DNA from: an uncultured Gemmatimonadales bacterium
GTDB taxonomy: Bacteria; Gemmatimonadota; Gemmatimonadetes; Gemmatimonadales; GWC2-71-9
Direction of reading: 5' to 3'
DNA: 64,000 nucleotides
Assembly (NCBI GenBank): GCA_963748815.1
Contig: CAVVKJ010000010.1
Span: 640,001-704,000 of the forward strand
Of this stretch, positions 3,359 to 54,900 are shown piece after piece. The position numbers were made by a program, and so were the translations under genes. The notes under the pieces are model-generated. The model was not told the DNA's origin. It saw only the letters and a list, made by a program, of their open reading frames with translations, and made no database searches. Each line of letters starts with the position of its first letter. The stretch's first letter is position 1.

Positions 3359-5721
<2,363 letters not shown>

Positions 5722-12327: not shown

Positions 12328-13389
<1,062 letters not shown>

Positions 13390-13456
13390 GGCGGCGCTCA
13401 CTGGGAAATGGCGGTTGAAGGACGGGCGCGGAAGGTCCGGCCGGTCGTCGATGGCG

Positions 13457-16993: not shown

Positions 16994-17065
16994 GGTGCAT
17001 CCGAAAGTTGAAGAAATCGCAGTCCCAAAGATACTCGCCGAGTCAACGCTCCGCGAGGTGAGGGG

Positions 17066-19677: not shown

Positions 19678-22360
19678 CCACCGAGCTCGCGCCGCAGTAC
19701 CAGCCCGGCGACATCGAGAAGGCGCTCTACCAGTGGTGGAGCGACCAGGACCTCTTCTCCCCCCGCCCGGGCGGTCCGTCCTACGTGATCATGATGCCGC
19801 CGCCCAACGTGACGGACCGGCTGCACATGGGCCACGGCCTCAACAACACCATCCAGGACGCCGCCATCCGGTTCGAGCGGATGCGGGGGCGCGACGTGCT
19901 CTGGCTCCCCGGCACCGACCACGCCGGCATCGCCACCCAGAATGTCGTGGAACGGGTCCTGACCTCCGAGGGGAAGACGCGGTTCGACCTCGGCCGCGAG
20001 GCGTTCGTGCAGCGGGTCTGGGACCACGTGCACCGGACGGGCGCCACGATCCTCGAGCAGCTGAAGGCGATCGGCGCCAGCTGCGACTGGAACCGGACCT
20101 ATTTCACGCTCGATGACGGGCTGTCGCGGGCGGTGCGTGAGGTGTTCGTACGCCTCCACGAGAAGGACCTGATCTACCGCGGCAACTACATCATCAACTG
20201 GTGCCCCCGCTGCCTGACCGCCCTCTCGAACGAGGAAGCGGAAAAGGAGGAGGAGGACGGGCACCTCTGGCACCTCCGGTATCCGCTCAACGACGGCCGG
20301 CACCTCACCGTGGCCACGACGCGCCCCGAAACGATGCTGGGCGACACCGCCGTGGCGGTGCATCCCGCGGACACCCGGTACGCGGCCCTCGTGGGCAGCA
20401 CCATCCGGCTCCCGCTGGTAGACCGGGACATTCCGATCGTCGCCGACGACGAGATCGATCCGGCGTTCGGCACTGGCGCGGTCAAGGTGACCCCGGCGCA
20501 CGATCCGCTCGACTTCGAGATCGGGAAACGGCACGGCCTGGAAGCGCTCAACGTCCTGACCCCCGACGCCCACATCAACGAGAACGCGCCGGCCCGTTTC
20601 CAGGGGCTGACCCGGGAAGCGGCACGCAAGCAGGTCGTGCGTGAGTTCGACGCGCTGGGGTTGCTGGAAAAGGTGGAGCCGCACCACCACGCCGTCGGTC
20701 ACTGCTACCGGTGCGGTACCGTCGTCGAGCCACGGCTCTCGGAGCAGTGGTTCGTCCGGATGGCACCGCTCGCCGCCCCGGCCCTGCAGGCGTATAAAGA
20801 CGGCGACGTCCGGTTCATCCCGGAGCGCCGCGGCACCGAGTACGCGCAGTGGATGGAGGGGATTCGCGACTGGTGCATTTCGCGCCAGCTCTGGTGGGGC
20901 CATCGGATCCCGGTCTGGTACTGTGACTCGCCGGGCTGCGAGCGGACCACGGTTTCCCGCACCGACCTGTCCGCCTGCCCCGGGTGCGGCGGTGCGGTGC
21001 GCCAGGACGAGGACGTCCTCGACACCTGGTTCTCCTCCTGGCTGGTGCCCTTCTCGAGCCTCGGCTGGCCCGAGCGAGACAGCGGACCTGAAGCGGTTCT
21101 ACCCCGGCGACACGCTGGTGACCGCCCCCGAGATCCTGTTCTTCTGGGTGGCGCGGATGATCATGGCCGGCCTGGAGTTCCAGGGGAAGGTGCCCGTTCC
21201 ACACCGTGTACCTCCACGGCACGGTGCGCGACACCCAGCACCGCAAGATGTCCAAGTCGCTGGGCAACGGAATCGACCCGCTGGAGGTGATCGAGCGGTA
21301 CGGCGCCGACGCCCTGCGGTACACGGTGATCTCGGGCATGGCCGTCGGGACCGACCTGATCCTCGACCCCGCCGACCTCGAGTCGTCGTTCGCCGCGGGC
21401 CGGAACTTCGCCAACAAGCTCTGGAACGCCGGCCGGTTCGCGCTCGGCACCCTCGACGGCCCGACCCGGCCCCTCGCGGGCCAGTACCCGGACGTGATTC
21501 GGCGCGAGGAACTCACCCTCCCCGATCGGTGGATCATCGCCCGCTGCGACGCGACGGTGCGCGCCGCCACCGAGGCGTTCGAGCGGTTCCGGCTCAACGA
21601 CGCCGCCGCCGCGGTGTATCGCTTCCTCTGGAGCGACCTGGCCGACTGGTACATCGAGCAGGCCAAGCCGCGGCTCTACAACCAGCAGCCCGGCGGCGAC
21701 GTGGCCCGCGCGGTGCTCGCCCAGACCTTTGACGTGGCGCTGCGGCTGCTGCATCCGGTCATGCCGTTCGTGACCGAAACGCTCTGGAAGCGGCTCCCGG
21801 GCCGGCAGGATGCCGATTCGATTTCGGTGGCGCCCTGGCCGCGCCCCGATGACCGCGCGACGGACGACGATGCGCTGGCGCACTTCGAGGAAGTGCAGCG
21901 CATCATCACGAGCCTGCGCCAGTTGCGGGCGGACGCCGGGGTACACCCCGGCGAGCAGGCCACCGGTTCGATCACGACGGCCACCGCGGCCACCGCCGCC
22001 CGCCTCTCCGGCCAGCGCGAGACCATCACCCGCCTGACCAAGGTCACCGTCGATGCCGTCGTGGTCCGGAGCGCCGATGGCTCGTCAGGCGAGGCCCTCA
22101 AGACCGCGGTGCTCCCCGACGGCGTCGAGGTGTCGATCGCGTTGAGTGCGGCCGACCGCGAGCGCGAATGCGCGCGGCTGGCCAAGGAGGAGGCGCACCT
22201 CCGGCAGCTCGTCGCGGCGCAGGAAAAGAAGCTCGGCAACGAGCAATTCGTGGCGCGGGCCCCCGCCGCCGTCGTCGAGGGAGAGCGCCAGAAGCTCGCC
22301 ACCTGGTCGGAACAGGCGGACGCGCTCGGCGAGAACCGCCGCCGCCTGGGTTGTGCATGA
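19674..22360 (+). CDS. valS: Valine--tRNA ligase with two frameshifts (about 21075 and 21195)
   Basis: [37 protein letters not shown]-terminal coiled coil. Confidence 0.95.
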
Positions 22361-23634
22361 CCGGGCGCCGCCTGGCGGGAGCGATCCTGGCGCTCGCCAT
22401 CGCGGCGTGCGCCAAGATGGAACCCCCGCCGGGCGGCCCCCCTGACCTCGTTCCCCCCGGGTTGATCGCCACCGTTCCGGAATCACTCACCGTCCTGCCC
22501 GAGTTTTCCGGAGACGTCGAGTTCCTCTTCAACGAGACCGTCTCCGAAGGCGGCAGCCCGAACATGGGCCTCGGCACCGGCGACCTTGAAAAGCTCGTCA
22601 TCCTCTCGCCGAGCGAGAAGGTGCCCAAGGTCCGGTGGAAACGGAGCCGCGTCACCGTCCGACCGGCGGAGGGCTGGCAACCAAACACCGTCTACCGCGT
22701 GCAACTCCTGCCCGGCGTGATGGACATCCGGCGCAACCGCTTCGACAGTACCCGGGTCGTCACCTTCACCACCGGCGCCCCGCTTCCCGAGTTGCACCTG
22801 ACCGGCCAGGTCTGGGATTGGACCACCGGCCGCCCCGCCCCGCGCGCCCTCGTCATTGCCGTGCTCCTCCCCGACAGCCTGCGGTACCGGATGATGGCCG
22901 ACAGCGCGGGCAAGTTCGACTTCGGCCCGCTGCCGGCAGGCGACTACCTCGTCTACGGCGCCATCGACCAGAATAGGAACGCCCGGCTCGACCGCCGGGA
23001 GGCGTGGGACTCCCTTCCTGTGCCGCGCGACAGCACCGCGGTCCCGGAACTGTGGGCCTTTCCGCACGACTCTGTCGGGCCACGGCTCTCGAAGGCCGAG
23101 GTGAAGGACTCGCTGTCCGCCACCCTGACCTTCAGCCAGCCGCTCGACCCCACCCAGCAGTTTGCGCCGGGCACGGTTCGCGTCGTCCTCCTCCCCGATT
23201 CGACCGTCGTCGAGGTGCTCTCGCTGCTGCCCAAGGCGGAACACGACTCGCTGTACCGTCCCCCGCCGCCACCGCCCGACACGACGGTGCCCGAAGCGCC
23301 GGCGCCGCCAAAGAAGGCCGTCGTCCCACCCGTCGTTGCGGACAGCGTGAAGCCGTCGCGGTCGCCCCTGTACACCTCCCTGGTGCTGCGGGTGGCCGCG
23401 GCCTGGAACCCAAAATCCACCTACGTGATTGAGATCGACTCGCTCCGAAACGCGAACGGCGCCCCGGCGGACATCCGCGGGCCGCTGGAGGTGCCGGAGG
23501 TGAAGGTCGACTCGACCGCCGTCGCCGCGGATTCCGCGGCAGCACTTCGCGATTCGATGCCGACGCCGCCGGATTCCGCCGCCCCGCCCACGCCGCCGGG
23601 GGACTCCCTCCCGCCGAAGCCGCCGGCTCGATGA
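22357..23634 (+). CDS. Lipoprotein with Ig-like (Big_5/SbsA-type) domains
   Basis: Lipobox IAAC followed by PPGGPPD; beta-rich; Pro-rich tail. Confidence 0.8.
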   Translation: MTGRRLAGAILALAIAACAKMEPPPGGPPDLVPPGLIATVPESLTVLPEFSGDVEFLFNETVSEGGSPNMGLGTGDLEKLVILSPSEKVPKVRWKRSRVTVRPAEGWQPNTVYRVQLLPGVMDIRRNRFDSTRVVTFTTGAPLPELHLTGQVWDWTTGRPAPRALVIAVLLPDSLRYRMMADSAGKFDFGPLPAGDYLVYGAIDQNRNARLDRREAWDSLPVPRDSTAVPELWAFPHDSVGPRLSKAEVKDSLSATLTFSQPLDPTQQFAPGTVRVVLLPDSTVVEVLSLLPKAEHDSLYRPPPPPPDTTVPEAPAPPKKAVVPPVVADSVKPSRSPLYTSLVLRVAAAWNPKSTYVIEIDSLRNANGAPADIRGPLEVPEVKVDSTAVAADSAAALRDSMPTPPDSAAPPTPPGDSLPPKPPAR

Positions 23635-27801: not shown

Positions 27802-29964
27802 GTGACGAACAGCAAACCCGCGACCCCGTACCGCTGGGCCGCCCTCGTCGGGCTGGCAGTCTTCGGCATCTACATTGCCACCCTCGCCCCGACGACCGCC
27901 TTCTGGGACACCTCCGAGTACATCGCCGCGGCGAAGGTGCTCGGCATTCCCCATCCGCCGGGCAACCCGCTCTTCGTGATCCTCGCCCACACCTGGGGAT
28001 TGCTCCCGCTGGCCGGCGAGTACGCCAAGCGGATCAACCTCTTCGCCGCCTTCACGAGTGCGGCCTCGGCGGCGCTCTGGTTCCTCATCGCCGAGCGCTG
28101 GCTTCGCGAGATCGTGCCGGTCCGCTGGGGCCGCCTCCTCGCCGCGGCCGCCGGGACGCTGGTCTCCGCCACCTCGTGGACCGTCTGGAACCAGTCGGCG
28201 GTCAACGAGAAGGTGTACACGGTGTCGCTGCTCTCGATGGCGCTGGTCACCTGGCTCGCCGTGCACTGGGGCGACGACGACCCCGGCCCGCACCGCGACC
28301 GGTGGGTCATCCTGATCGCCTACATCATCGCGCTCTCCACCACCAACCACCTGATGGGGCTGCTCGCGGCGCCGGCGGTCGCGATCTACATCCTCTGGAC
28401 CGACTGGAAGGTGGTCACGCGCCCCTGGGTCGTGGTGGGCGTCATCACCGCCGTCCTCGTGGGCGTGTCGCTCAACTATCTCTTCCTCCCGATTCGGGCC
28501 GGGCTGTTCCCCCCGATCAACGAAGGGGAGCCGGTCGGCTTCTTCAGCCAGGCGCTGATGGACGTCATCAACCGGGTCCAGTACGCCAAGCCGCCGGTCC
28601 TCGACCGGCAGGCGGACCTCCTCTCCCAGTACGGGAACTACCTGCAGTATTTCCGCTGGCAGTTTGCCCGTGACTGGGGCAGCGCCGCCGGGGCCGCCGC
28701 GGCGCTCTTCGCGATGCTCGGCCTGTACGGCCTCTGGGAGTTGATCCGCCGCGACAAGCGCGCGGGCTTCGCGGCGCTCGCCATGTTCGGCACCCTGACG
28801 GTGGCGCTGGTGTTCTACCTCAACTTCAAGTACGGCTTCTCGATGCACCTCGAGCGGGACATCCCGCGCGAGGTGCGTGAGCGCGACTACTTCTTCATGG
28901 GGTCGTTCTCCTACTTCGGCGTGCTGGTCGCACTCGGGCTCGGCGCGCTCTATCGGGGCATCGCCGACTCCCTGGCCGTCCGGATCCCTGATGCGAAACG
29001 ATGGCTCTTCGCGTCTCCCATCTTCCTGGTCGCCCTGATTCCGCTGGCCGGCAACCACGCCTCCGCGACGCGAGCCAACGAGTACCTGGCCCGGGACCTC
29101 GCCATCGACATGCTGGAGTCGCTCGAGCCGTACGGCATCCTCATCACCGCGGGCGACAACGACACCTTTCCGCTCTGGTTCGCGCAGGAAGTCCTCGGTG
29201 TCCGGCCGGACGTGACGCTGGCGAACCTCTCGCTGATGAACACCCGCTGGCATCTCCGGCAGCTGCAGCGCCGGGAGACGCCGGAGTTCGACCCCGCCAG
29301 CGCGGCCCGCGTCTGGCGACCCGGCCCCGCCGAGACCGGCATCGCGCTGGCGGACAGCGCGGCCGGGGCTCCGGCCGCGGCCTGGCCTCGCCCCGACGGG
29401 TCCGTCTTCCAGAGCTTCTCGGCGGCGCAGATGGACAGCCTGCCGGAGGCGATCGCGGTCAAGAAGGGCACGGGCCTCCGGGTGGACAGCCTCGTGATCG
29501 CGTTCGGCCAGGAATACCTCACGCTGCAGGACATCGCCACCGTGGCGCTGATCCGCGACAACCTGGGCAAGCGGCCGATTTACTTCAGCTGGAGCGACGG
29601 CAACTACCCCGACGGCGTCCTCGGCCTGACAGAGTACCTCCTCACCACGGGGCTCGTCCGCAAGGTGATGCCGAAGCCGATCAAGGAGGGCAACGGCATC
29701 GTGCTGTCGAAGACCCTCGGCTTCGTGGACCTCGAAGTCACCCGGAAGCTGCTCTGGGAGACGTACCACTGGCCGAGCGCCACGCGCAGCCGCGAGCGGG
29801 GCTGGGTCGACGTCCCCTCGTCCTCGATCCTCCAGCTGTACGGGATCATCTATCGCGAAACCGGGGTCATCCTGCGGTCGGAGGGCCTGGTGGACGAAGC
29901 GGCCCGGGCCGACTCCATCTCGGTCATGGTGCAGCAGAACATCATGCGGGGAGAACGAAACTAG
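27802..29964 (+). CDS. DUF2723/TMEM260-like polytopic membrane protein (putative GT-C glycosyltransferase)
   Basis: APTTAFWDTSEY, GIPHPPGNP, REVRERDYFF, GDNDTFPLW; about 11 TM segments plus a soluble C-terminus. Confidence 0.85.
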   Translation: MTNSKPATPYRWAALVGLAVFGIYIATLAPTTAFWDTSEYIAAAKVLGIPHPPGNPLFVILAHTWGLLPLAGEYAKRINLFAAFTSAASAALWFLIAERWLREIVPVRWGRLLAAAAGTLVSATSWTVWNQSAVNEKVYTVSLLSMALVTWLAVHWGDDDPGPHRDRWVILIAYIIALSTTNHLMGLLAAPAVAIYILWTDWKVVTRPWVVVGVITAVLVGVSLNYLFLPIRAGLFPPINEGEPVGFFSQALMDVINRVQYAKPPVLDRQADLLSQYGNYLQYFRWQFARDWGSAAGAAAALFAMLGLYGLWELIRRDKRAGFAALAMFGTLTVALVFYLNFKYGFSMHLERDIPREVRERDYFFMGSFSYFGVLVALGLGALYRGIADSLAVRIPDAKRWLFASPIFLVALIPLAGNHASATRANEYLARDLAIDMLESLEPYGILITAGDNDTFPLWFAQEVLGVRPDVTLANLSLMNTRWHLRQLQRRETPEFDPASAARVWRPGPAETGIALADSAAGAPAAAWPRPDGSVFQSFSAAQMDSLPEAIAVKKGTGLRVDSLVIAFGQEYLTLQDIATVALIRDNLGKRPIYFSWSDGNYPDGVLGLTEYLLTTGLVRKVMPKPIKEGNGIVLSKTLGFVDLEVTRKLLWETYHWPSATRSRERGWVDVPSSSILQLYGIIYRETGVILRSEGLVDEAARADSISVMVQQNIMRGERN

Positions 29965-30265: not shown

Positions 30266-30880
30266 CTAGCGGCGCCCCATGAACGACAGGCCGACGCTGA
30301 GGTACTGGTACGACCCCGACTCGCCGCCGATGTACTTGCCGGCGTTGGCGGGATAGTTGTACTTGCCGAAGACGGCGATCTCGGTCTGCGATCCCTTGTT
30401 CAGGATGAACCCGAGTTCCGGGGCGAACCCCATGATCCAGTTGCTGGTCTCGACCGTGCCCGGGCCGATGTCCATCAGCTGCTTCATGTAGTACACACCG
30501 AGCCCGAGGCCGATGTAGGTCTGGACCCGGCCGCCCGCCTTGCTGTAGAGGTGCCCGGTCACCAGCAGCGGGAAGACGTTCATCGAGCGATACTGCTCGC
30601 CCGAGACGGTGCCGCCGGGAAAGTAGATCGCGTCGGTGGTGCTCTCGTAGAACGCGGTGTAGCCCAGCGAGACGCCGACGGTCACGTTCGGGTTGATGAA
30701 GCGGCGGCCCTCGACCGAGACGCCGATCCAGCTGTCGTTGCCGATGAAGTTCTCGGAGAGGTCGCCGGCGGGATTGGCCCAGGAGTAGGTCAGGCCGCCG
30801 AGGACCTGCGCGGAGGCGGGCGCGACCCCGGCCAGGCCGAGGGCGATGACGAGCATCGCGGCGCGGAGACGGGGGGTCAT
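30266..30880 (-). CDS. Outer-membrane beta-barrel protein (OmpW/OmpA-like)
   Basis: Signal peptide, amphipathic strands, YIGLGLG, C-terminal YLSVGLSF. Confidence 0.8.
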   Translation of the reverse strand: MTPRLRAAMLVIALGLAGVAPASAQVLGGLTYSWANPAGDLSENFIGNDSWIGVSVEGRRFINPNVTVGVSLGYTAFYESTTDAIYFPGGTVSGEQYRSMNVFPLLVTGHLYSKAGGRVQTYIGLGLGVYYMKQLMDIGPGTVETSNWIMGFAPELGFILNKGSQTEIAVFGKYNYPANAGKYIGGESGSYQYLSVGLSFMGRR

Positions 30881-31512
30881 GGGTTCACCCGGAAGATGTA
30901 GAGGGATTGGGCGAAGGCCTGGTCGATGCCGTCGATGATGTCGTTGGCGAGCGCCGAGCCGGAACTCCCGGACACCACGCCGTTGATGCCGGCGAGCCAC
31001 ATCACCGGCGGCCGCGTCACGACGGGCGGAACGCCGCCGGTGAGGTCGGCCATCGGGATCAGGATGGTGCCGGTGCTGTAGGTGTACCCCACGACGTCGG
31101 TCGGATAGTCCGGAATCCAGCCGCTGCAGACCCAGGGATACCAGTCCTCCCAGACCGCGCACCAGTCCTCGATGGAAATGTCGTAGTTGTCCTTGAGGGT
31201 CACGACCGGGTTGAGCGAGAGGTCGGCCGTGGCGGGATCCATGACCCGGGTGTACCCGCGGACCGTCATATTCGCGGCGGTGCGGGCGACAATCAGGCTG
31301 TCGTAGACGTGGCTGATGTTGTCGGTGCCGCCGAGATGGACAACGGTGTCCGGCATGTAGAAGGTGACAGCCGAGTCGAAGGCAAACAGGGTGTCATAAA
31401 TGGTGGTGACCGACGCGTAGACGTTCGGCTGGCTGGCACGTTCGGGATAACAGGCGGCGAGCCCTGCCCCGACCGCCATCACAAGCCCGGTCGCCCGCAA
31501 GAACTTGCGCAT
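30877..31512 (-). CDS. DUF4136-like lipoprotein
   Basis: Lipobox LAAC, YTYSTGTILI, GIDQAFAQS. Confidence 0.75.
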   Translation of the reverse strand: MRKFLRATGLVMAVGAGLAACYPERASQPNVYASVTTIYDTLFAFDSAVTFYMPDTVVHLGGTDNISHVYDSLIVARTAANMTVRGYTRVMDPATADLSLNPVVTLKDNYDISIEDWCAVWEDWYPWVCSGWIPDYPTDVVGYTYSTGTILIPMADLTGGVPPVVTRPPVMWLAGINGVVSGSSGSALANDIIDGIDQAFAQSLYIFRVNP

Positions 31513-36134: not shown

Positions 36135-36136
36135 GC

Positions 36137-37177
36137 CTATGCCTCCTCGCCGGTGGTGCGCCCACAGCTGAACCGATCGCCGACCACCAATTCCACGAAG
36201 CGATGCCCACCGGACACCACCACCGCACTGTCCATCCCGCTACCCACAGGGCCATCGCCTGCAGGACCAACGCCCCAGCAGACGGCTACCGAATCCGCTT
36301 GCAGGCCGCACGCCCGGTAGTCGCCATACGGAACCACCGCTGCGCCGAAGGCATTGCCACGTGACAACCATATGGCGCGAAGCGCCGGCGAGGCGATGAC
36401 CTGGCTCGGCGGCGAGGCGAGCGTCCAACACCACGCTGTCGAATCAGCCGCGGCGGAACCGCAATATTGTGGCGACCGTAGGTAGGTGAATCCGAGGAGG
36501 GCCCCTGCGATTTGGCGAATGGCCGGAAGGTCTGAAATCTGAGTCGGGGTCGGCGACTGTGCGGTGGCACACCACACCATCCCTACACCGTCCAGCCCGC
36601 AGACCGAAGGTCCTGCCACCGCGAGATCAACGAAGTGATGGGTATCGTCCACCAGACCAGGGGTGAAATTCGCTCCGGCATTCGGCGCGACGGATACGGG
36701 CGAGGAGTTGCCCCAGAATGGCGCCCCCCAACACCAGAGCGCTCCTGCGCGCAGCCCGCAGGCAAACCCGTCCTCCGCGGACAGGCGGTCCACCCGAAAT
36801 GCCTCGCCCGTGGACTCGAAATTCGCCTGAGCGCCCTCGAGAGTCCCGGCCCGCACCCGGTTCACGCCCGACGTACTCCCCAGCGTCCACACCGCCTTCG
36901 CCAATCCGTCCGCATCGGTCTCATCGGTCGTTGGCGCGATGCTCCCCCCACCCTGCCGCACCACCCACGTCACCTCGACCCCCGCCCTTGGCGCCCCAGA
37001 GGGATCGACCGCGCGGACGATGAGAGTATCGATCAACTCCCAGCCAGGCGCGCCCACGGTAGAGGGGGCTTGGACGATGACCAGGTCGGCCGGCAACGGC
37101 TCGGTCGTCTGGTCGTTGCAGGCGACAGTGCTCAGCATCGCGATCAACATCAGCCCTGCGTGACGCGATGGGATCAC
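36137..37177 (-). CDS. Ig-like + RCC1-like lipoprotein, C-terminally truncated
   Basis: Lipobox STVAC; stops at FSCGRTTGEEA where paralogues continue GEVxCWG. Confidence 0.7.
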   Translation of the reverse strand: MIPSRHAGLMLIAMLSTVACNDQTTEPLPADLVIVQAPSTVGAPGWELIDTLIVRAVDPSGAPRAGVEVTWVVRQGGGSIAPTTDETDADGLAKAVWTLGSTSGVNRVRAGTLEGAQANFESTGEAFRVDRLSAEDGFACGLRAGALWCWGAPFWGNSSPVSVAPNAGANFTPGLVDDTHHFVDLAVAGPSVCGLDGVGMVWCATAQSPTPTQISDLPAIRQIAGALLGFTYLRSPQYCGSAAADSTAWCWTLASPPSQVIASPALRAIWLSRGNAFGAAVVPYGDYRACGLQADSVAVCWGVGPAGDGPVGSGMDSAVVVSGGHRFVELVVGDRFSCGRTTGEEA

Positions 37178-37242
37178 GGCAGACCTCTCGTTGACATCAT
37201 CGTCGTCCGCGCCGTGAGTGTCTCACTTCGGACCGGCTGCAC
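36787..37242. repeat. 456-bp direct repeat, copy B
   Basis: Collinear with 34902-35357. Confidence 0.85.
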
Positions 37243-38160
37243 GGGGTAGTACGCGAGCTCGCCAACGATCGTACTGCCGCCGTCAAGCTCGTCCGAACAG
37301 TACACTTCGTTCCCGGCCATCCGGAGGCAGGTGACGGTGTTGTAGGCCATCGAAAGGACGCCGGCGTTGGGCAGCCCGGTTGGGGGGAGGAGCATCGGGG
37401 CGGTGGGTGCCCACCAGTGCTGGAACTGGCCCGGCGACAGGGCGGTGAGGACCCTGGCCTGGGATCCGCCGAGGAGCGTGGCGCCGGAACCGACCGCAGT
37501 CGGGGTCGTAGGCGTCAGGTCCGGCCCGCCCCAGCAATCCACCTCTCCCGTCGGCAATCGTCCACAGGAGAAGCGATCACCCACGGTCAGCTCCACCCAG
37601 CGGCCCCCTCCCGTCACGGCCACCACCGAGTCGAGCCCGCCCCACAGAGATCCATTCCCAGGCTGGCCCACACCCCAGCAGTAGGCGGTCGAGTCCGCCG
37701 TAATCCCACAACCGCGATAGTCCTTGTACCGAACAGGGGCCGCACCGAACGTATTCCCATTCGCCACCCAGATCGCCGCGAAGGCCGGTGATCCCACCAC
37801 CGGCTCCGGGACGGAGTCGGTGCGCCAGCACCAGGCAGTCGAATCGGAGGCCGCAAGCGCGCAGAACCGCATGCGCCCGCTGCCCCACCAATTATTGGCG
37901 CCGACCAACTGGCGGGCGGCGGGCAGGCCGCCCACCTGTTGGAGGGCGTGGGACGCTCCTGTACTACACCACACTACCTGCGCAGGATCGAGTCCACAGA
38001 CTGTGGACCCCGACACCGCAATATCCGTAAATGCGTGGAGGTCATCCACCAGCGCCGGCGATACGTTCGCAGGTGGGAAAGGTCCTTGGGATACCGGTTC
38101 CCCGTTCGCCCAGAAACCAGGTCCCCAGCACCACAGTGTCGTTCCGACCATGGGAGCCAC
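37174..38160 (-). CDS. RCC1-like repeat protein lacking signal peptide and Ig domain
   Basis: Similarity starts at LWCWG; ends YYPVQPVRSETLTARTTMMSTRGLP. Confidence 0.65.
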   Translation of the reverse strand: MAPMVGTTLWCWGPGFWANGEPVSQGPFPPANVSPALVDDLHAFTDIAVSGSTVCGLDPAQVVWCSTGASHALQQVGGLPAARQLVGANNWWGSGRMRFCALAASDSTAWCWRTDSVPEPVVGSPAFAAIWVANGNTFGAAPVRYKDYRGCGITADSTAYCWGVGQPGNGSLWGGLDSVVAVTGGGRWVELTVGDRFSCGRLPTGEVDCWGGPDLTPTTPTAVGSGATLLGGSQARVLTALSPGQFQHWWAPTAPMLLPPTGLPNAGVLSMAYNTVTCLRMAGNEVYCSDELDGGSTIVGELAYYPVQPVRSETLTARTTMMSTRGLP

Positions 38161-44467: not shown

Positions 44468-46977
44468 TCCAGTACCCCCAGCCCGTGACGGGCAAAGAAA
44501 TCCTCGCACTTGGTGCGCACCTGCGCCCACGACCCGATGACCCGCTCCGCCCGCGGGAGCCCCGCCAGCACCAGGGGGCCGTACCGCTTCGTCACCACCC
44601 GGCGGTCGAGCAACACCACCACGCCGACGTCAGTGGTGGAGCGGATCAGCCGCCCGAACCCCTGCTTGAGCTTGAGCGCCGCGTGCGGGAGGAGATAGCC
44701 CATGAAGCCGTCCTCCCCCGCCTCCGCCAGCCGCTCGAGACGCGCCGCGGTGATCGGCTCCGACGGCACCTTGAACGGCAACTTGCACAGCACTAATCCT
44801 CGCAGCGCACGCCCCGGCACGTCCACCCCCTCCCAGAAGGAGTCGGTGCCGAGGAGGATCGCGTTCCCCGCGTCGCGGAACCGGCGGAGCAGCGTGTCCC
44901 GGCTGCTCTCCCCCTGTACCAGCAGCGGCCACCGGGGGTCGAGCATCGTCCGCAGCTGCTGCGCCGCCCGCCGCAGGGCGGCGTGGCTCGTGAACAGGAC
45001 GAACAACCCCCCGTCGGCGGCGTGCGCCAGGTCGGTCACCGCCTGCGCGAGGGCGGCGTCGTGCGCCGCCTCGTCCTCCCGCGGGTCGGGGAAATCGTCG
45101 GGGATGCCGAAGAGGCATTGCGAGGGGTAGTCGAAGGGAGACGAGAACACTTCGCGGGTGGTCACCGGGCTCGGCGAGACCGCGAGCCCCAGCCGCCGCT
45201 CGAGGAACTCGAACTCGCCACCCGCCGCCAGCGTCGCGCTGGTGAGGACGACCGTCTTCAACCGCTCGAACAGCAGCTCCCGGAGCACCGGCGCGAGATC
45301 GAGCGGCACCGCCGAAAGCTGGGTGTGCTGCCGCTTGGCGCCGGAACGTTCGATCCAGCGGACGGTGGCGGCGCCACCGGCCGCGGGGCGGAGCGTCCGG
45401 TTGAGGCCGTCGGACACGTTGTTCAGGCGGCGGACGACCGCGCGCATTTCCTGCAGCAGCTGGTCGCCCCGTTCGGTCGACTCCACCTGGGCCAGGCGGT
45501 CCTCCACCGTTTCCACCTGGTTCTTGATCTGGTCGAAGCTCGACAGGAGCGCGTCCAGCTCCATCCGGAGCCCCTCCTCCCAGACCTCGTCCTTCTCAAA
45601 CTCGTCGGTGAGACGGCGCTGGCCGCCACCCGCCGCCTCCGCCATCCCGTGCAGGCGAAGGAAGAGCTGCTCCGCGGCGCGGCGCGCGTCGCCGATGGCC
45701 GGCATCAGCCGCTCGCGCACCAGGTCGAGGCTGGCCCGGCTCAGCAGGTCGCCGCGCCCCGAGAGCTCCATGACCAGCGACGGCACCAATCCCTTGCGGT
45801 TCCGCTCGAACCGGCCGAGCAGGCGCTGGACGCCGCGGCTCGTGACCTGCGTCCCGAGGTGGGACGCCGCGACATCTTCGAGGTGGTGGGCCTCGTCGAG
45901 GATGAGCCGCTGGTAGGGCGGGAGCACCGCCGCCTCTTCCCAGTTGTCCGACGCCTGCCGGACGGCAAGGTCGGCGGCCAGGAGGTGGTGATTCACCACC
46001 ACCACGTCGGCCTCGGCCGCGCGCCGCCGCGCCTTGAAGAGGAAGCACTGGTCGAAGAAGCCGCACTTCACACGGGTGCACAGATCGGCCTCGGCCGAGA
46101 TCTCGTCCCACACTTCGCTGGTCGGCTGCACCGGCAGGTCGCTCAGCGTCCCGTCCGCGGTGCGCGACGCCCATTCCGCGAGGCTCACCAGCTCGTCCTG
46201 CTTGTCCGGCTCGAGCAGGCTCTGCTGCGCCCCCGTGGCGTGCTGCAGCCGGGAGAGGCACAGATAGTTCCGCCAGCCCTTCAGCAGCGCAAACTTCGGC
46301 GCCCAGCCCTCCTCCGCCAGCGCTTCCCGGAGCATCGGCAGGTCCTTGCCGACCAGCTGCTCCTGGAGGTTGATCGTGTTGGTGCTGATGACCGTGCGCT
46401 CGTTGTTGGCCCGCGACCAGGCCAGCGCCGGCACCAGGTAGGCGAACGACTTCCCGACCCCGGTGCCCGCCTCCAGGACGAGGACGCCGCCGTCGTTGTA
46501 GCCGTCGGCAATGAAGGCCGCCATGTCGCGCTGGCTCTGCCGATCCTCGTACTGGCCCAGCACCCGGGCGACGGGCCCGTGCTCACCCAGCGTTTCCACC
46601 ACGGCGTAGGGATCGAGCCGCTGGAGCTTCTGTGCGTGCGGGACTTCGACGACGACGTACAGCCGCTCGCCGGCGTTATCGATGATGCCGAAGCCCACCC
46701 CCTCATCGTGCAGCCGGGCTGCCACGGCCAGGTCGGGCTCGGAGGGCTCGAGGTTGCCGCTGGGATGGTTGTGGAGCAGCATCTGGCCGCGGCGGGCGGC
46801 CCCGGGGAGGGCGAGCACCATCTGGACCGTACCGCGGGCGACCGCGCGCGCCGCGGTGACTACCCCCTCCTCGTCCACGTCGGCGACGAACGACACCTCG
46901 CGACCGCCGGCCGCGCGAATCTCGCCGGCCAGCAGGGTGCGCACGGCCACGGCGATGCGAACCACGGAAACGGTCAC
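44464..46977 (-). CDS. DinG/YoaA-type Fe-S helicase with N-terminal JAB (RadC-like) domain
   Basis: HNHPSGNLEPSEPD; EAGTGVGKS; NYLC..C..C..C; DEAH; FWEGVD; QGFGRLIR. Confidence 0.92.
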
Positions 46978-48944
46978 GGGGCCGGCGCGGGATCGATAAG
47001 AATGAAGGGTGCGTCGTCCTCGCCCATGGCGCGGAACCAGGCGATCAGCGCGTCGATGCTGTCAGGCGGGAAGATGCCCCGCGTGCCGATCATCCGGCGG
47101 GTGATTTCCAGCGTCCCGTCGACAAAAGCGTAGGTGCCCCAATACTCGCCAAACACGCTGGCCGCGTGCACCGAAGGCGGCAATTGGGGGCGCCATCCGG
47201 CCGGCAGGACGATGCGCACCTTGACGACGTCCTCCTCGGGGCCGAAGACGCGGGCGGCGTCGATCGGGAAGCGGCGCACCGGCAGCTGCTCCAGCGCATC
47301 CGCCGCGTCGGTGAACGCCGCCACGGTTCCCACGGGGTTCTCGAGGATCCAGTTGCTGCCGGAACGGCGCAGCGCCTTGCCGTCCTGCACGGAGAGCGAG
47401 ACCCGCACCGGCGCGGCCAGGTCCAGCCCCTGGAACGTCTCCAGGCTGTCTCCCCGGGCGCCGGTAAACCACCCCTGCGCGATCTTGCGCGCGAAGTTGG
47501 CCCGGCCGGCCGAATCCATGGGTGACTCGAACAATTCCCGCAGCTCCCACTCCCGCGACCCGGTCATCTCCTCGCTGTACGCCCCGTTGAACTTGCCGGC
47601 CGGATCGAGCCGGCCGGACAACTGGATGAGCGACAGGCGCTCGGCGGGCGTCTCCTCCGGAAAGGTGAGTTCCTCCACCGCGCCCGCGGCGGGCACCCCG
47701 AGGCCGAACTCCCCCTGCAGCTGCGGCGGCAGGACGCCGAGCGGCAGCAGCGCCACCGTCAGGTCGGCGTAGACCCGGCCCTCGGGAAGCGTGACGTACG
47801 CGATGGCATGGTCGAACTGGTCCATCGAAGGGAGGCCCCGTTGGACGCCCCCGTCGCTGCTGGTGAGGACGGTGACGGCGTTGAATCCCAGCGACCGGAG
47901 CGCGGCCACGAACAGCGTCGCCTTGTCCTTGCAGTCGCCGAAGCCGCTGGCCACCACCTCGGCGGGCGGGCGGGGCTGGTAGCCGCTGATGCCGAGGGAA
48001 ATCGACACGTACCGAATATCCTGCGCCACCCAGCGCTGAATCGCCGCCGCCGTGTCGCGCGCCGTGGTGGCGTCCGTCACCAGCGACCGGACCTGGCGCA
48101 CCAGCTCGGGCGAGAGGGCGTACCGGTCCTCCGCCAGTGTTCCGTACCACCGGCCGATGTCACCCCAGGTCAGCGGCGACGAGGCCGCCACCCACATGTA
48201 GATGTCGTTCGAATCGGCCGCGTAGGCCTCGGGCTTGATGCGCGGGAGATCTTCCGTGGCCCAGGTCATCACCTGGCGGCCGTTGGACCGCTCCGTCAGG
48301 CGCGGAAAGTTGAGGTTCCGTTCCTCGATCCGGAGCCGTTCCCCCTCCGGCGCGTCGATGATGAGCCGGGACCGCTTCACCATGAGTCCGGTGCTGACCC
48401 CCCACCACTGGTAGAAGTCACCCGGCACCCACGCCTTCGTCTTGACGGTCGTGTAGCTGTAGTCCACGATGGTGCCCACCGCCACGCCGCTCATCGAGAC
48501 GCGCACCACCTTGCGATTGGCGTACACCGGGGCGCCCATCGCCGCGGGGACGTCGCTCTCCTGCTGCTGCGCGGGGCCGGCGCTGAGGACGGTGCCGTCG
48601 GGCTGGACCACGCGAATCCAGTTGAGGGTGAACTCCTCGTTGTCCGGCGACCAGGAGAAGGAATGCTCCGCGAGCCCCTCGACCGCGGCCTGCTTCAGGA
48701 CCTGGACCACCTGTCGAAAGGTCCGCCGCTCGCGACCGTCGGCCTCGACGACGATGACACCGTCGTCGAGCAGGAAGGCGGCGGACTCCTCGGGAAAGTC
48801 GGCGGGATCGACGGCGAGCCGGTAAATCGAGTCGGAACGCACCGAGGGATCGCCGGCGGGGGTGATGCGGGGCGCCTGCGCCGACGCGCCTCCCGGCAGG
48901 AGCAGGATTCCGACGACGATCCAGCGGAGTCGCTTCAGGCTCAC
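46974..48944 (-). CDS. Exported DUF3857 + transglutaminase-like protein
   Basis: Signal peptide; GDCKDKA, FDHAI, YADLT give an intact Cys-His-Asp triad. Confidence 0.88.
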   Translation of the reverse strand: MSLKRLRWIVVGILLLPGGASAQAPRITPAGDPSVRSDSIYRLAVDPADFPEESAAFLLDDGVIVVEADGRERRTFRQVVQVLKQAAVEGLAEHSFSWSPDNEEFTLNWIRVVQPDGTVLSAGPAQQQESDVPAAMGAPVYANRKVVRVSMSGVAVGTIVDYSYTTVKTKAWVPGDFYQWWGVSTGLMVKRSRLIIDAPEGERLRIEERNLNFPRLTERSNGRQVMTWATEDLPRIKPEAYAADSNDIYMWVAASSPLTWGDIGRWYGTLAEDRYALSPELVRQVRSLVTDATTARDTAAAIQRWVAQDIRYVSISLGISGYQPRPPAEVVASGFGDCKDKATLFVAALRSLGFNAVTVLTSSDGGVQRGLPSMDQFDHAIAYVTLPEGRVYADLTVALLPLGVLPPQLQGEFGLGVPAAGAVEELTFPEETPAERLSLIQLSGRLDPAGKFNGAYSEEMTGSREWELRELFESPMDSAGRANFARKIAQGWFTGARGDSLETFQGLDLAAPVRVSLSVQDGKALRRSGSNWILENPVGTVAAFTDAADALEQLPVRRFPIDAARVFGPEEDVVKVRIVLPAGWRPQLPPSVHAASVFGEYWGTYAFVDGTLEITRRMIGTRGIFPPDSIDALIAWFRAMGEDDAPFILIDPAPAP

Positions 48945-50239
48945 GTCTTCAGTTCCTTCTTCTTGGCCGCGGGGAAGAGCACGTTGTTCAGGATCAGGCG
49001 GTACCCGGGTGAATGCGGATGCATCGACAAGTCGGTCGGGGCGTCACCGATCTGGTGCTGGGGGTCTTCCGGGTCGTGCCCCCCGTAAAAGGTCCAGGTG
49101 CCCTGCCCGTGCTCCCCATGAAGATACTTGGCCCACGGCGCTCCCGGCTCGTCGGCCAGGACGGTGACCCCCGGCTTGATCCGGCTCTTCCGGAACGAGG
49201 TCGTGAGTCCGTAGAAATCGGGGATCGACTCCCGGTGATTCTGGACGAGCATCGTCGCCACCGGGTCGATCTTCGCGCTGAAGCCGAACGACCGGAAGCT
49301 CCCCAATTCCTGCCGCCGGCTGAGCGCGTTGACCTCGTGGCCGTCGATGTCGGAGAACTGCGACACGGTCGGGCTCAACTCGAGGCGCGCGTCCTGGAAG
49401 GCGAGGGCGCGGCTCCAGTCCATCTTGGCGGTGGCGTTGGGGTCCATCGGCGTCTGGTCGGCGTACGCCGCCGCGATGTCCACCCCCGCGCCGGCCAGCG
49501 CAAGGTCGAGCGTCTCGGTCGCGGCGCACATCGCGAAGAGGAACCCCCCCTGCTGGACGTAGGCCGCGATCGCTTCCGCGACAGCGCGCTTCTCCGCCGG
49601 GACGTTGGGAAAGCCGAACGCCCGCGCCATCGCGGTGTTGCGCTCGACCATCTCGGTCAGCCAGGGCGCGCCCGCGTACGTGAGGTAGAACTTGGAGTAC
49701 TGCCCCGTGAAGTCCTCGTGGTGCAGGTGAAGCCAGTCATACCGCGCGAGCCCCGTCCCGCCTGGCGCCAGGACCTCGGGATCCCAGACCTTGTCGAAGT
49801 TGATGCCGGCATACCGCAGCACCATGGTGACCGCGTCGTCCCACGGCGCGGCATTGGGCGGGGCGTACACGGCGACCTTGGGCGCCTTTTCCAGCGGCAC
49901 CGCCTCCATGTTGCCCAGCTGGAGCTCGGCGCGGATGCCGAGGAGGGCACTCTCATCCAGCGGTTCGGTGGTCACTCCGGCCAGCGCGGCATCGCGCGCC
50001 GTGACGGGATCGGACGGGACCAGGAAGGCGCCGCTCCGATAGTTGAGGAACCATTCCGCCCGACCACCTCGCTCGAGGAGCCGGAAGACGACCCCGTACG
50101 CCTTGAGATGGTCGCTCTGGGTGTCGTCCATCGGAATGAGCAGCCAGGGCGCGCGCCACACCGACCGCGGCGGCCACGCGAAGAAGGGGGCCGCCGCGAG
50201 GACGCCACCGGCGCTCCGGAGAAACTCCCGGCGTCGCAT
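48941..50239 (-). CDS. Tat-exported GATase-like protein (family often labelled 'asparagine synthetase B')
   Basis: MRRREFL; HLKAYG, PWDDAV, WLHLHHEDFTGQ, GGFLFAMC, GGHDPED. Confidence 0.8.
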   Translation of the reverse strand: MRRREFLRSAGGVLAAAPFFAWPPRSVWRAPWLLIPMDDTQSDHLKAYGVVFRLLERGGRAEWFLNYRSGAFLVPSDPVTARDAALAGVTTEPLDESALLGIRAELQLGNMEAVPLEKAPKVAVYAPPNAAPWDDAVTMVLRYAGINFDKVWDPEVLAPGGTGLARYDWLHLHHEDFTGQYSKFYLTYAGAPWLTEMVERNTAMARAFGFPNVPAEKRAVAEAIAAYVQQGGFLFAMCAATETLDLALAGAGVDIAAAYADQTPMDPNATAKMDWSRALAFQDARLELSPTVSQFSDIDGHEVNALSRRQELGSFRSFGFSAKIDPVATMLVQNHRESIPDFYGLTTSFRKSRIKPGVTVLADEPGAPWAKYLHGEHGQGTWTFYGGHDPEDPQHQIGDAPTDLSMHPHSPGYRLILNNVLFPAAKKKELKT

Positions 50240-51963
50240 CAGCTCTCCGGAATCCCGCCGCGCGCGGCGTCGAGCACCCGCCGGGCCTGCGGCACGGCGG
50301 CGCTCCCGGGGTACGCGAGGATCAGGTGCTCGAGGTGGTCCACCGCCTCGGCGGCTCGATTGAGCGAGAGGAGCAGGCGCGCGAGCGCCAGTTCCGCGGC
50401 AGGCGCGGTGGCAGGCGCCGAGGAGTCGGCCGCCGAGCGGAGTAGTCGTTCCCCCTCGACGGGGCGTCCACGCGCCACTTCGACCTGCCCGGCCAGGAGG
50501 CGAAGTTCCGCCCCGCCTGCGGCGGGGGCGAGCCCCTCCGCCACCGCGAGCAGGCCGGTGACCGCCGCGGCCGAATCGCCGCGCGCCAGCGCCAGGAGCG
50601 ACGCGCCGAGCGGCGGCAGGGAATCTTCCTCGATCGGCTGGATGAGCGCGAGCATCGCCGTGCGGGCGGTCGCCTCCTCGCGCGTCCCGGCAAACGGCCC
50701 GGCGGCACGGAGCGCGGTCGACGCCCCCGCGAGGTCGCCACGATAGAGGCGGATCCGCCCGAGCACGGCCATCGCCTCCACCGTGCTGTCGGATGCCAGG
50801 ACCGCCGCCGCACGGTCCAGGTTTCCCTGTTGAATCCACCCCTCGGCCACCTGCAGCGTGAGTCGGTCGGCGTTCTCCTGCCCAAGGTGGGTCCGCAGTT
50901 CGTCGAGCTGGCGCTGGGCCTCCGCCACCTGCCCCTCGCGCAGGAGCACCGTCACCAGCGTCGCCGTTGCCCCGGCCGCCATGTCCGGCGGCGTGCTCCC
51001 GTCCGCCGCCAGCGCCACGAGCATCCGCCGCGCAGACGCGGCGTTGCCCGCGTCGGCATAGGCGCGGGCCGCCTCGAGCCGCATCCGCGACGCGGCGCTG
51101 CCACTGCTCCGGTCGGCGATCTGTTCGAGCGCCTCGCCCCGCACCTCGGCGGCTTCCGTCCCCTCGACGGTGCGCGCCGCATCGAGGAACTGCCGCAGGG
51201 CCTCGACCGTCTCGGTCTTCGCCTCTGGCAGGCTGCTCATCAGGAGCGCATAGGCGGCTGCGGGAGCACCCCACTGGACCTCGAGCTCCGCGCCGAGGCG
51301 GCGCGCGGCCGGGGTGCCGCGAGAGAGCTGGCGGACGATCCTGTCCCGATCGGCGACTGGCGCGCGCGCCAGCGCGTTCCGCGCCGTCAGTCGATATCCG
51401 GGATACCGGTCCATCGCGAGCGCCCACTCCCGGGCCGCTTCGTCCCAGTTGTTCTGGGCGGCGGCGAGCAAGGCCATTTCCCCGGCAAGCGCAGCTGGAT
51501 CGCCCAGCCGCTCCCGTCCCGTGAGGTAGGCGCGGCGGGCGCCACTCCCGTCCCGCTGGCCGAGGAGAGTGTTGCCCCAGTCGCGATAGGGGGCCTCGCT
51601 CCCCGGCTCGACCACGGCCCAGCGCCTGGCGACCGCGCCCACGCTGTCGGGCCGGTTGGCAGCGGCCCAGCCTCGCATGGCGACGGAGTATCCAGCGATG
51701 ATGGACGGGTTGCGGGTCAGCAACGCCTCGGCAGGCAGCGCCAGTTCAGCGTCGCGCCGCAACGGCCCCAGCGACCGCTCGAGTCCCAGCAGCGCCGAGA
51801 GGTTGTCCGGATACTCGCGAAGGACGCGCAGGTAGGCGTCTGCCGCGCCGGAGAAATCGCTCCGACGCTCCAGTTCATAGGCGCGCGTCATCAACTCGGT
51901 CTGTCCGGCGAGCTGGCCAGACATTCCGAGGAGCAGCAGCAGCGGCAGGAGCGCGCGCCTCAT
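50239..51963 (-). CDS. Exported TPR-repeat protein
   Basis: Signal peptide; helical repeats; C-terminal LEHLILAYPGS. Confidence 0.8.
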   Translation of the reverse strand: MRRALLPLLLLLGMSGQLAGQTELMTRAYELERRSDFSGAADAYLRVLREYPDNLSALLGLERSLGPLRRDAELALPAEALLTRNPSIIAGYSVAMRGWAAANRPDSVGAVARRWAVVEPGSEAPYRDWGNTLLGQRDGSGARRAYLTGRERLGDPAALAGEMALLAAAQNNWDEAAREWALAMDRYPGYRLTARNALARAPVADRDRIVRQLSRGTPAARRLGAELEVQWGAPAAAYALLMSSLPEAKTETVEALRQFLDAARTVEGTEAAEVRGEALEQIADRSSGSAASRMRLEAARAYADAGNAASARRMLVALAADGSTPPDMAAGATATLVTVLLREGQVAEAQRQLDELRTHLGQENADRLTLQVAEGWIQQGNLDRAAAVLASDSTVEAMAVLGRIRLYRGDLAGASTALRAAGPFAGTREEATARTAMLALIQPIEEDSLPPLGASLLALARGDSAAAVTGLLAVAEGLAPAAGGAELRLLAGQVEVARGRPVEGERLLRSAADSSAPATAPAAELALARLLLSLNRAAEAVDHLEHLILAYPGSAAVPQARRVLDAARGGIPES

Positions 51964-54900
51964 GGCGCCGGTCGCTCGGTCAGGCGCCTGAAGTACTCCA
52001 GCACCAGCCGGCGATCCTCCGGCGAGAGCCCCTGCAGCTGTTCCCAGCTCGGCAGCCGGAGCTGCTGATCGTCCACGCCCAGCTGCGCCCGAAGCGCCGG
52101 CGGAAGGCGCACGTCGTCCTGCGCCCCGGTCGTGCTCTGCCGCTCCTTCTGGTCGTCCTGCTCCTCCCCCTGCAGCGTCCGTCCGGCATCGAGCATCCGG
52201 CGGAACAACCGCTCCTGCCGTTCCACCGTGCGCTTGTCGAGCCGACCGGCCTCCAGTTGCCGCGCGAGGTCCCGCGCCTCCCCGGCCAACTCCCCTGCCC
52301 CTTCCGACTGGGTTTCGGCCCGCAGCCGTTCCAGCTCCTCGGCGAGTGCGCGCTGCTGCGCGGACAGCTGCCGGATCTGCTCCTGCATCGCGCCTCCGCC
52401 CACCATCGGCAGCATCTGGGCGCCTTGCTGGCTCAGCTGGCCCTGCTGCTGGGCCATCTGGTTCATGCGCGCCATCGCCTCGGCGAGCCCGGAGCCGGAC
52501 CCGGAGCCGGACACATCCCCCCGCGCCCGCGACATCTGGTAGGCCGCAGCGTTCAGCGCTTCCACCGCCTCGCCGGCCTGCGCCGTGGCGTCGCGCTGCC
52601 CCGGCACCGCAGTCGAGAGCGCCTCGCGGGCCGCGCTCATCTGCCGGCGGGCCGACTCGAGCGTCGCCCCGATCTGCGGCGGCACCAAAGCGTTCTCCCC
52701 CGACACCTTCTTGTACTGTTCCGTCAGCTTCTCGACCCCCTCCTCCACCACGGCCTGCTGGGCCCGGAAGGTCGACGCTGACTCACCCAGGCGCAGCGCC
52801 TCGCTGATGGCCAACTGCCGCTCCGCAAGGCGGCTCGTTTCCGCCAACATCTGGTCGATGGCCGCCAACACCTCCGCCTTCCACTCGCCCTGCACATCCT
52901 GGCGTTGCTCGTCTATCTGCTTCTCGAGCGCCTGCAGCCGCTCCTCGGCCTGCTGCCCCTGGCGCTTCGCCGCCTGCGGCTTGCCTTCCTTGGCCGCGGC
53001 CGCCGCCTGCTTCATTTCCGCTGCCGCGGCGGAGGCCGCCTTGGCCGTCGCCTCCATGCGATCGGCCTGCTCGCTGTTCTGCATCCGGTCAAGTTCCTTT
53101 GCCGACTCCTGCATCGCCGAGGCGAGCGAATCGGCCCGGGCCGCGAGCGCTTCCTCCTGTGCGGCGGCACGGGTCGAATCGGCGCGCGCCACCTCCTCGT
53201 TCCAGCGCCCCTGCTCCTTCGCAAGGTCGCGCGCCTCGGCCGCCATGTTGGCCATTTGCCCCTCCATGGCCGCCCGTTCGAAGAGCTTCTGGCTCCGTTC
53301 CAGCGCCTCCTTGAGCTGGCGCTGCGCCTCCGCAAGCTCCTCGAGCGCGCGCCGGGACCGCGCCGCGTCGAGCTGGCTCAGCGCCTCCCGCAACTCCTCC
53401 AGCTGCTGGCGCATTTCCGGGGTGAGCGCGCGGTCGAGCTGCTCGGCGATCTCCTGCATCCGGCGCTCGAACTCCGGGTCCTGCACACCCGCCTCCGCCG
53501 CCGCGCGCTGCAAGTCGTCGATGGCCGCGCGCGTCTCCTCGGCCTGCCGCACCAACTCCTCCTGCTGCCGGGCCACCGCTTCAGCCCGCTTCGCCTCGTC
53601 GAACGACATCGCGGCCGCTTCGCGCCGGCCCGGCTGTTCAGCGCTCGAGCGGGACGCCTCGCGCGAGAGGTCTTCCGTCTGGCGCTGCAGCCGCTTGCTC
53701 GCCGCGGCGAGCGAGTCGAGCTGGGCGCCCACCGACTCCGTGGCGGCGCGCTCGGCCGCCCGCACCTCGGCGAGCGTCGGGAGGCGGAGCACGTACTCGC
53801 GCGAGCGCCCAGTCCGCCGGCCCGGCGCGTTGTCGGTCGCGACCGCGTAGTAGCGCACGGTGTCGCCCGGCAACAGCGAGCGTCCCCCGAGCTCCAGCAC
53901 CCACGGGACGATCAATCGGTCGGGCGCCCCAGCCGGGATCGGGACCTCCTCCCGCCGCTCCAGCTCCTCGATCCCCAGCCGACTGATGCGCCGGCTCACC
54001 ACCACGAGCGCCGTGACCCCGTGGTCGTCTCGCGCGTCGACGACCAGCGGCACCCGGAGCCCGAGGGGGGCGAGCGTGTCCGCTCCCGGCACCGGGATGC
54101 CGACCGCCGGCACGCTGTCCGGCGCGATGCGCAACAGCAGGGCGCCGTCGTTCCCGGCCAGCGGCATCCCGTTCGAGGTCGTCAGCGCCAGGCGATACGC
54201 CCCCGACGCGACGGGGACGCTCCGCCCTTCGAACCGCCCTCCATCGACGACGAGCACCACGGGACCCCGCGGGCCGACCAGGGCCGCGGCGGAGAGTGGC
54301 GCGGTGGCCTCCCCTTCCACCAGCAGGCGCGTCCCCTCGGGGAGCAGGATCGAATCGGGGCCGAAGGCCAGCGATTCGTCCTCGATGCCCAGATACCTCG
54401 GGTACTGCGCGGTCACCGACAACGACCCGAGGAAGGCGGGAATGCGGACCGCGACGTGAAGGGTGTCCGATCCCCGACTGCCGCTGGTGGCGCGGACGAA
54501 GAGGTCGGCGGTGAGAGGCTGGCTTAGGACGGTCGCTTCCCCGATCGAATCGAGCGTGACCTCCTCGGGTCGCCAGGTCTCGCCCGGCGCTCGCGTCCAG
54601 AGGGTGGCGACGCCGCGGCCCGGGGCGCGCACCACGAGCGAAACCCGGGCTCCCCGGTCCACGGAGAGCGCAGAGGCGTCGAGTTGGACGGCGCCCATCG
54701 CGAGTCCCAGAGCCTCGGCGGGATGCCAAAGCATTCGGACCGGCGCGCGGCCCGGCCCGGCCCCGAGCAAACAGGCCCCGCCGACGACCAGCGCGACGGC
54801 GCTGATGCGGTTGGATCGCAAGACGCGGGCGGTGATCGGCGCCAGCGCCGCCGGACCCCGTGCCGCGAGGTCCGCCGCCCCGGCGTTGTCGGCGGCAAGG

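Follow-up and report, generated by a model that had tools for sequence, protein, structure and literature searches.

A general periplasmic system of protein O-glycosylation, of the type known from Bacteroidota, is very probably present in an uncultured bacterium of the order Gemmatimonadales. This view comes from a stretch of 64,000 nucleotides (hereafter the window; GenBank assembly GCA_963748815.1, contig CAVVKJ010000010.1, positions 640,001 to 704,000), in which one lipoprotein gene is dense with the sequon D-(S/T)-(A/I/L/V/M/T), and from the genome to which it belongs (3.16 Mb, about 69% guanine plus cytosine, 86% complete; G000 in the coordinates below). The original prediction had proposed, from the density of the motif in exported proteins, that an organism apparently outside Bacteroidota has an equivalent general O-glycosylation system; enrichment across the proteome and glycans modelled for a cultured species of Gemmatimonadales now support it. 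Two genes of the window are central:

22357..23634, plus strand: lipoprotein of 425 residues with Big_5 (Ig-like) and CarboxypepD_reg-like parts and 17 sequons; a predicted heavily O-glycosylated substrate and a core gene of the phylum
27802..29964, plus strand: TMEM260-like membrane glycosyltransferase of 720 residues with the GT-C fold (DUF2723; PF11028; GT117); candidate initiating protein O-mannosyltransferase

The placement of the host outside Bacteroidota is borne out: for both the lipoprotein and the neighboring transferase, the nearest named homologues are from Gemmatimonadales. In a FastTree tree, both TMEM260-like copies of the genome lie among the Gemmatimonadota rows; since the tree drew long-branch warnings and has no outgroup, it gives no direction of inheritance.

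Motif excess in exported proteins

The motif excess is proteome-wide, specific to export and specific to Asp. We called 2,809 genes with a hexamer model of our own (some genes being split by frameshifts) and assigned proteins to classes by a heuristic signal-peptide rule, which gave 377 exported and 1,192 cytoplasmic proteins. The exported set holds 764 motifs against 344 ± 18 expected from 200 within-protein shuffles, of which the highest reached 400, and at least one site is found in 260 of the 377 proteins. The observed to expected ratio is 1.11 for the cytoplasmic set. With a relaxed classifier, the ratios are 2.19 for exported proteins (1,090/497.8) and 1.00 for cytoplasmic ones (586/587.3), so that the comparison proposed with the original prediction, exported versus cytoplasmic with shuffled controls, comes out at 2.19-2.22 versus 1.00-1.11. 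The window does not drive the signal, as the exported ratio is still 2.17 after its removal.

The excess is stronger after D-S (3.00) than after D-T (1.43) in exported proteins, and it reaches 2.73 in lipoproteins as a class. The controls are flat: Glu (0.76) or Asn (0.77) in place of the Asp at −1, the reversed motif (0.88), and D-S/T followed by other residues (0.69). When tripeptides are ranked by z, DSL, DSA, ADS, DST and DSV take the first five places, with DSI tenth and DTL twelfth. In membrane proteins, the ratio is 1.59 in predicted outer loops (55/34.7) and 1.16 in inner loops (43/37.2). P falls below 0.001 in 29 proteins (19 exported, 7 membrane, 2 cytoplasmic and 1 of another class); the reversed motif yields 3 such proteins. 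The second strongest protein in the genome, of 1,641 residues (G000:C9:91164 onward), has 33 sites where 7.2 are expected.

The strongest, with the lowest Poisson P among 2,799 scored gene calls, is the lipoprotein at 22357-23634. It has a lipoprotein signal and a Big_5 domain, the CarboxypepD_reg match being below the cut-off. As originally counted, all 17 of its D-S/T pairs are followed by A, I, L, V, M or T, and it has 28 Asp in total; in 20,000 composition shuffles the sequon count averaged 1.56 and never exceeded 8. A DNA-repeat artefact is ruled out, as the codons vary and Ser is encoded by both TCN and AGY. Orthologues are present in 30/30 chosen genomes of the phylum, with 382 sequons where 56.0 are expected; the number per orthologue ranges from 1 to 28 and is lowest in three families (f9, f11 and f12). 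A set of 119 closer homologues has 1,612 sequons against 191.4 expected. In Prevotella intermedia, a Big_5 lipoprotein with 7 sites is among the most glycosylated proteins (PMC10897501), a likeness to the present lipoprotein at the level of the domain. The sequence suggests that the lipoprotein of the window would likewise be among the most heavily modified substrates.

Relatives and a photosystem with modelled glycans

Exported proteins in several samples of other Gemmatimonadota show the excess as well. It is 2.44 (189/77.5) over 45 named loci, 2.36, 1.72 and 1.40 in three genome samples (G063, G132 and G060, the second with a cytoplasmic ratio of 1.50), and 1.42 (60/42.1) in a pooled sample from another class of the phylum. 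A positive control labelled Chitinophagaceae gives 1.78 (116/65.1). Beyond these, the enrichment is found also in the WOR-3 phylum (G478, 119/38.9 = 3.06; cytoplasmic 1.39) and more weakly in other phyla of the Fibrobacterota-Chlorobiota-Bacteroidota (FCB) group, such as Marinimicrobia (G435, 81/49.2 = 1.65); two Ignavibacteria loci have 23 motifs for 11.3 expected. It is not found in six Pseudomonadota replicons when pooled (85/86.6 = 0.98; range 0.36 to 1.59). A KSB1 locus (1/1.9) and two loci from Bacteroidales records (9/6.6) are samples too small to read.

Glycans have been modelled in a cultured relative of the same order, Gemmatimonas phototrophica. In its photosystem, a reaction center with double light-harvesting rings (RC-dLH; PDB 7o0u), one O-glycan was placed on the cytochrome subunit, at Thr108, and another on the reaction-center M subunit (RC-M), at Ser331; their core is the Man(GlcA)Rha (mannose, glucuronic acid and rhamnose) of heparinase II from Pedobacter heparinus (PMC8849296). 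The PDB chains read D107-T108-L109 and D330-S331-F332 at these positions; both sites thus follow Asp. Phe at +1 is described as a minor variant of the Bacteroidota sequon (PMC12871550). The glycans are reported only in the methods of the structure paper (PMC8849296), from which the words motif, sequon and Bacteroid- are absent, and glycan terms are absent from the structure paper on G. groenlandica. The G. phototrophica RC-M has 367 residues, against at most 332 in M chains from outside Gemmatimonas among the chains listed. In phototrophic Gemmatimonadaceae (L245:2427-3410, L244:2439-3407), there are 4-5 D-S/T motifs in the C-terminal tail of RC-M and 3-4 in PufC. The sequences suggest that a horizontally acquired RC-M gained glycosylation sites of its host.

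The motif could instead be a relic, or a structural or compositional preference, for instance for Asx or Ser/Thr turns where exported folds are rich in beta structure, with the sites unglycosylated in this lineage. Four of the lipoprotein sites are conserved in position in 22-28 of the 30 orthologues, as residues of a fold would be, and DSL exceeds expectation in cytoplasmic proteins too (110 vs. 74). Against this stand the pooled value for Pseudomonadota; the location of many lipoprotein sequons in Pro/Ala-rich tails, where they shift between orthologues; and the last 38 residues of the G. phototrophica RC-M, with four D-S/T motifs, one bearing a modelled glycan. We consider a preference without glycosylation most improbable.

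Several observations nevertheless weigh against a general glycosylation system and the initiating enzyme proposed for it. The evidence within this genome is from sequence, and its glycans are predicted. The modelled glycans amount to two sites, neither covered by mass spectrometry, and their starting model was copied from the heparinase II glycan of a Bacteroidota member (PMC8849296); one of the two sites lies in the minor sequon D-S-F. Small samples are noisy: E. coli alone gives 1.59, and with such a spread in Pseudomonadota no conclusion can be drawn from a single sample below about 1.6. Random samples from four genomes with PF11028 show no excess (G054, 72/84.2 = 0.86; G012, 0.92; G116, 1.14; G422, of the Marinimicrobia phylum, 1.23), and there is little in the phylum of a genome labelled Latescibacterota (G152), where PF11028 is present and the ratio is 1.12 (30/26.9).

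The lipoprotein orthologues in some of these lineages are sequon-rich. Those of G116 and G422 have 14 each, and those in the phylum of G152 have 7-10 sites vs. 2.5-2.7 expected; in the TMEM260-like protein of G152 the ERDY motif is missing, and the sequence reads GDNDTFTL. In G054 (family f6), the lipoprotein has 25 sites whereas the sampled exported proteins stand at 0.86 (L057 vs. L017-L020 and L066-L075), a discrepancy for which dilution by acquired genes is a possible cause. G116 and G422 are not natural knock-outs: they have no PF11028 match, yet the gene is present, cut at a contig end.

Candidate enzymes of the linking step

About 4 kb downstream of the lipoprotein gene is the gene for the TMEM260-like protein at 27802-29964, which the original prediction had not named. 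Its match to PF11028 has an E-value of 5.9e-45. Human TMEM260, its sole sequence match in PDB, is a protein O-mannosyltransferase (CAZy GT117; PDB 9rql; PMC10214176). The two proteins have in common a PF11028 GT-C module and a Rossmann-like periplasmic part, a profile match at E 2e-48, and six functional residues: D52, H67, R264, Y267, R355 and the base D441 of the human enzyme (bioRxiv 10.64898/2026.03.17.711096) align, six of six, to D36, H51, R258, Y261, R361 and D452. These positions are kept in 79-80 of 80 aligned homologues. The C-terminal part aligns to human TMEM260 only below significance. The predicted structure has a pLDDT (predicted local distance difference test) of 94.5, and its Foldseek matches listed at E ≤ 0.001 are all GT-C enzymes or their complexes; 9rql is absent among the matches listed.

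PF11028 was found in 150/151 genomes of Gemmatimonadota, 251/251 of Bacteroidota, and 40/41, 41/41 and 30/30 of three more phyla, counts that include kin and are not independent. In the two genomes without a match, the gene is there but truncated by a contig break. It was found in one of 14 control genomes, that of Bacteroides thetaiotaomicron, and in none of the six Pseudomonadota replicons. The present genome has a second copy (G000:C10:601547-603862), with 43% identity in the aligned region. At least two copies, in separate clades, occur in many Gemmatimonadota, and one in most Bacteroidota. Four sites that fit the sequon lie in the protein at 27802-29964 itself, in its periplasmic C-terminal part (518, 545, 562 and 704), and DUF2723 proteins of Porphyromonas gingivalis (PMC8729774) and P. 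intermedia (PMC10897501) are listed as glycosylated. A dedicated operon of enzyme and substrate is unsupported: the lipoprotein orthologue is in the fetched flank of 10/63 named loci, the flanks often being short.

From these sequence comparisons, we favor, with modest confidence, the TMEM260-like enzyme as the protein-linking, first-step transferase. A second GT-C enzyme is its chief competitor, encoded in another part of the genome:

G000:C10:382053-384380: YfhO-like GT-C (PF09586, 30.1 bits, cut-off 28.5); rival transferase
G000:C10:381341-387519 (L260:2341-8519), minus strand: cluster of a GT2, a GT4 fused to LPG_synthase_TM, the YfhO-like GT-C, and a GT2 resembling polyprenyl-phosphate-hexose synthases

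The YfhO-like protein is 28% identical (E 8e-39) to a YfhO from the phylum Bacteroidota. The cluster could provide donor synthesis together with a second GT-C; the genes upstream of it are presumably rpoN and lpt-like. In the same glycosylation system, the YfhO-like enzyme might transfer a pre-assembled lipid-linked core, leaving the TMEM260-like one to special substrates or another step. The Bacteroidota YfhO has been predicted to be the transferase from homology to PMT enzymes, conservation and essentiality (bioRxiv 10.64898/2026.07.27.740950), and the YfhO-like gene adjoins the GT2 and GT4 sugar genes, while the TMEM260-like gene is without sugar-gene neighbors. On the other side, YfhO proteins so far characterized, such as YfhO of B. 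subtilis and Lmo1079 of Listeria, glycosylate teichoic acids and not proteins (PMC5836110), the family also occurs in Bacillus subtilis and Lactococcus lactis, and the only characterized member of PF11028 is a protein O-mannosyltransferase whose six functional residues are kept here. We regard linkage by YfhO as unlikely.

The assignment of the linking step to the TMEM260-like enzyme has its difficulties. Among the genomes searched, the YfhO-like GT-C is present in 61/61 Gemmatimonadota and YfhO in 61/61 Bacteroidota, 58 of the latter being matched by Pfam (PF09586) and the other 3 by a protein query; being equally widespread, the two families cannot be separated by distribution. No FCB-group genome lacking the TMEM260-like gene was found among those searched, and Myxococcota and Thermodesulfobacteriota have short forms of PF11028. 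The sequon of human TMEM260 is another one, long, Pro-rich and situated in IPT domains; the enzyme reads it by means of a TPR domain and takes dolichyl-phosphate-mannose as donor (bioRxiv 2026.09.21.753134; bioRxiv 10.64898/2026.03.17.711096).

P. gingivalis does not discriminate between the two enzymes. A July 2026 preprint calls YfhO absent from it (bioRxiv 10.64898/2026.07.27.740950), but its glycoproteome lists, with one site each, both PGN_0192, a DUF2723 protein, and PGN_1968, a 'putative YfhO/PMT family glycosyltransferase' (PMC8729774).

The linking enzyme of a real system could also be a third protein, such as a PMT_2/ArnT-like enzyme, a Wzy_C/O-OTase-like membrane protein or a member of an unrecognized family. 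The genome has one match to PMT_2 and two to Wzy_C. However, PMT_2 is without a match in two genomes (B. thetaiotaomicron and G435) and Wzy_C in one (G054), and each matches 9/14 unrelated control genomes. A third enzyme seems quite improbable.

In the scheme that we prefer, with the TMEM260-like enzyme as initiator, a polyprenyl-phosphate-mannose donor would be made on the cytoplasmic side, possibly by the GT2 at G000:C10:381341-382060, and then flipped. The TMEM260-like enzyme would put mannose, alone or within a short core, on Ser or Thr after Asp, with D452 acting as the base and the donor held by D36, H51, R258, Y261 and R361. Extension or ligation of the remaining glycan would fall to the YfhO-like GT-C, a role that its family's action on teichoic acids fits. 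A two-step model of the Bacteroidota system requires a transferase and a ligase (PMC12871550). Rather than being confined to Bacteroidota, the system would go far back in the FCB group. We give about an even chance to the joint proposition that O-mannosylation at D-(S/T)-x is ancestral to FCB (Bacteroidota, Gemmatimonadota, WOR-3, Marinisomatota and others), that TMEM260/DUF2723 initiates it, and that YfhO builds or ligates the rest.

Other proteins of the window and known systems

The motif recurs in other proteins of the window, where the original counts hold up:

30877..31512, minus strand: DUF4136 lipoprotein; 4 of 4 D-S/T pairs fit, at residues 40-73; predicted substrate
37174..38160 (or 37174-38196), minus strand: RCC1-like repeat frame (label from the original prediction); 4 of 4 fit; predicted substrate
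46974..48944, minus strand: DUF3857/transglutaminase-like exported protein; 5 of 6 fit; predicted substrate
50239..51963, minus strand: exported TPR protein; 4 of 5 fit; predicted substrate
51960..55238, minus strand: membrane-anchored protein of 1,092 residues; 9 of 9 fit; predicted substrate
3359..3643, minus strand: FtsB/DivIC; 1 of 1 fits

The 1,092-residue protein has the at least nine sequons first claimed for it, but the DUF4175-like label does not stand, there being no match in Pfam or NCBIfam. Cytoplasmic enolase has none among its four pairs (DSR, DTK, DSE and DTF) and GlyA none in one, as had been stated. A counter-example that had gone unremarked is the predicted cytoplasmic protein at 12328-13401, which we take to be amino-acid dehydrogenase-like: all five of its pairs fit, probably by chance. 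Single genes therefore prove little, and the case rests on the proteome test. Some frames of the window are broken: 19674-22360, presumably valyl-tRNA synthetase, is one gene split over two overlapping frames, and two further regions look frameshifted, that of threonyl-tRNA synthetase near 17000-19000 and the RCC1-like one at 33853-38196. These are probably assembly errors.

The general O-glycosylation system is known from Bacteroides fragilis, P. gingivalis, P. intermedia, Tannerella forsythia and Flavobacterium johnsoniae (PMC12871550). It is described as unique to Bacteroidota, and its transferase as missing for more than 15 years (PMC12871550; bioRxiv 10.64898/2026.07.27.740950); the review text names Fibrobacterota alone as a further enriched phylum (PMC12871550). 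The present genome resembles it in the sequon, the preference of Ser over Thr, L/A/V/T/I at +1, the failure of Glu to substitute for Asp, the restriction to non-cytoplasmic proteins, and a Big_5 lipoprotein as a heavy substrate, here a predicted one. The Man/Rha/GlcA core of the Bacteroidota system is modelled in the relative G. phototrophica, whose glycan differs in being modelled with O-acetylated GlcA and N-acetylglucosamine. The host phylum differs too: the system appears to work alike but outside its described range. No outer-glycan locus of the lfg type (metG-wzx-glycosyltransferases) was identified in the genome, a motif search for metG giving no match; the genome carries the different cluster GT2-GT4-YfhO-GT2.

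In the literature searched, whose coverage left out most subscription papers, there was no paper extending the system to Gemmatimonadota, no characterized bacterial member of the PF11028/TMEM260-like family and no relevant paper joining GT117 with Bacteroid-; DUF2723 occurred in one main text, that of the human TMEM260 paper. Gemmatimon-, YfhO and TMEM260 are all absent from a second review (PMC12645811).

These findings move the system into an abundant phylum of soil and water with cultured members, and connect it with glycans that a published structure already shows. For the transferase, the choice narrows to two core families of GT-C enzymes, and specific residues are singled out for mutation. 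If the scheme is true, glycoengineering would gain a bacterial O-mannosyltransferase directed by a sequon, the biology of gut Bacteroidota would become easier to understand, and a general protein O-mannosyltransferase of bacteria would be the orthologue, and the bacterial counterpart, of the human disease enzyme TMEM260.

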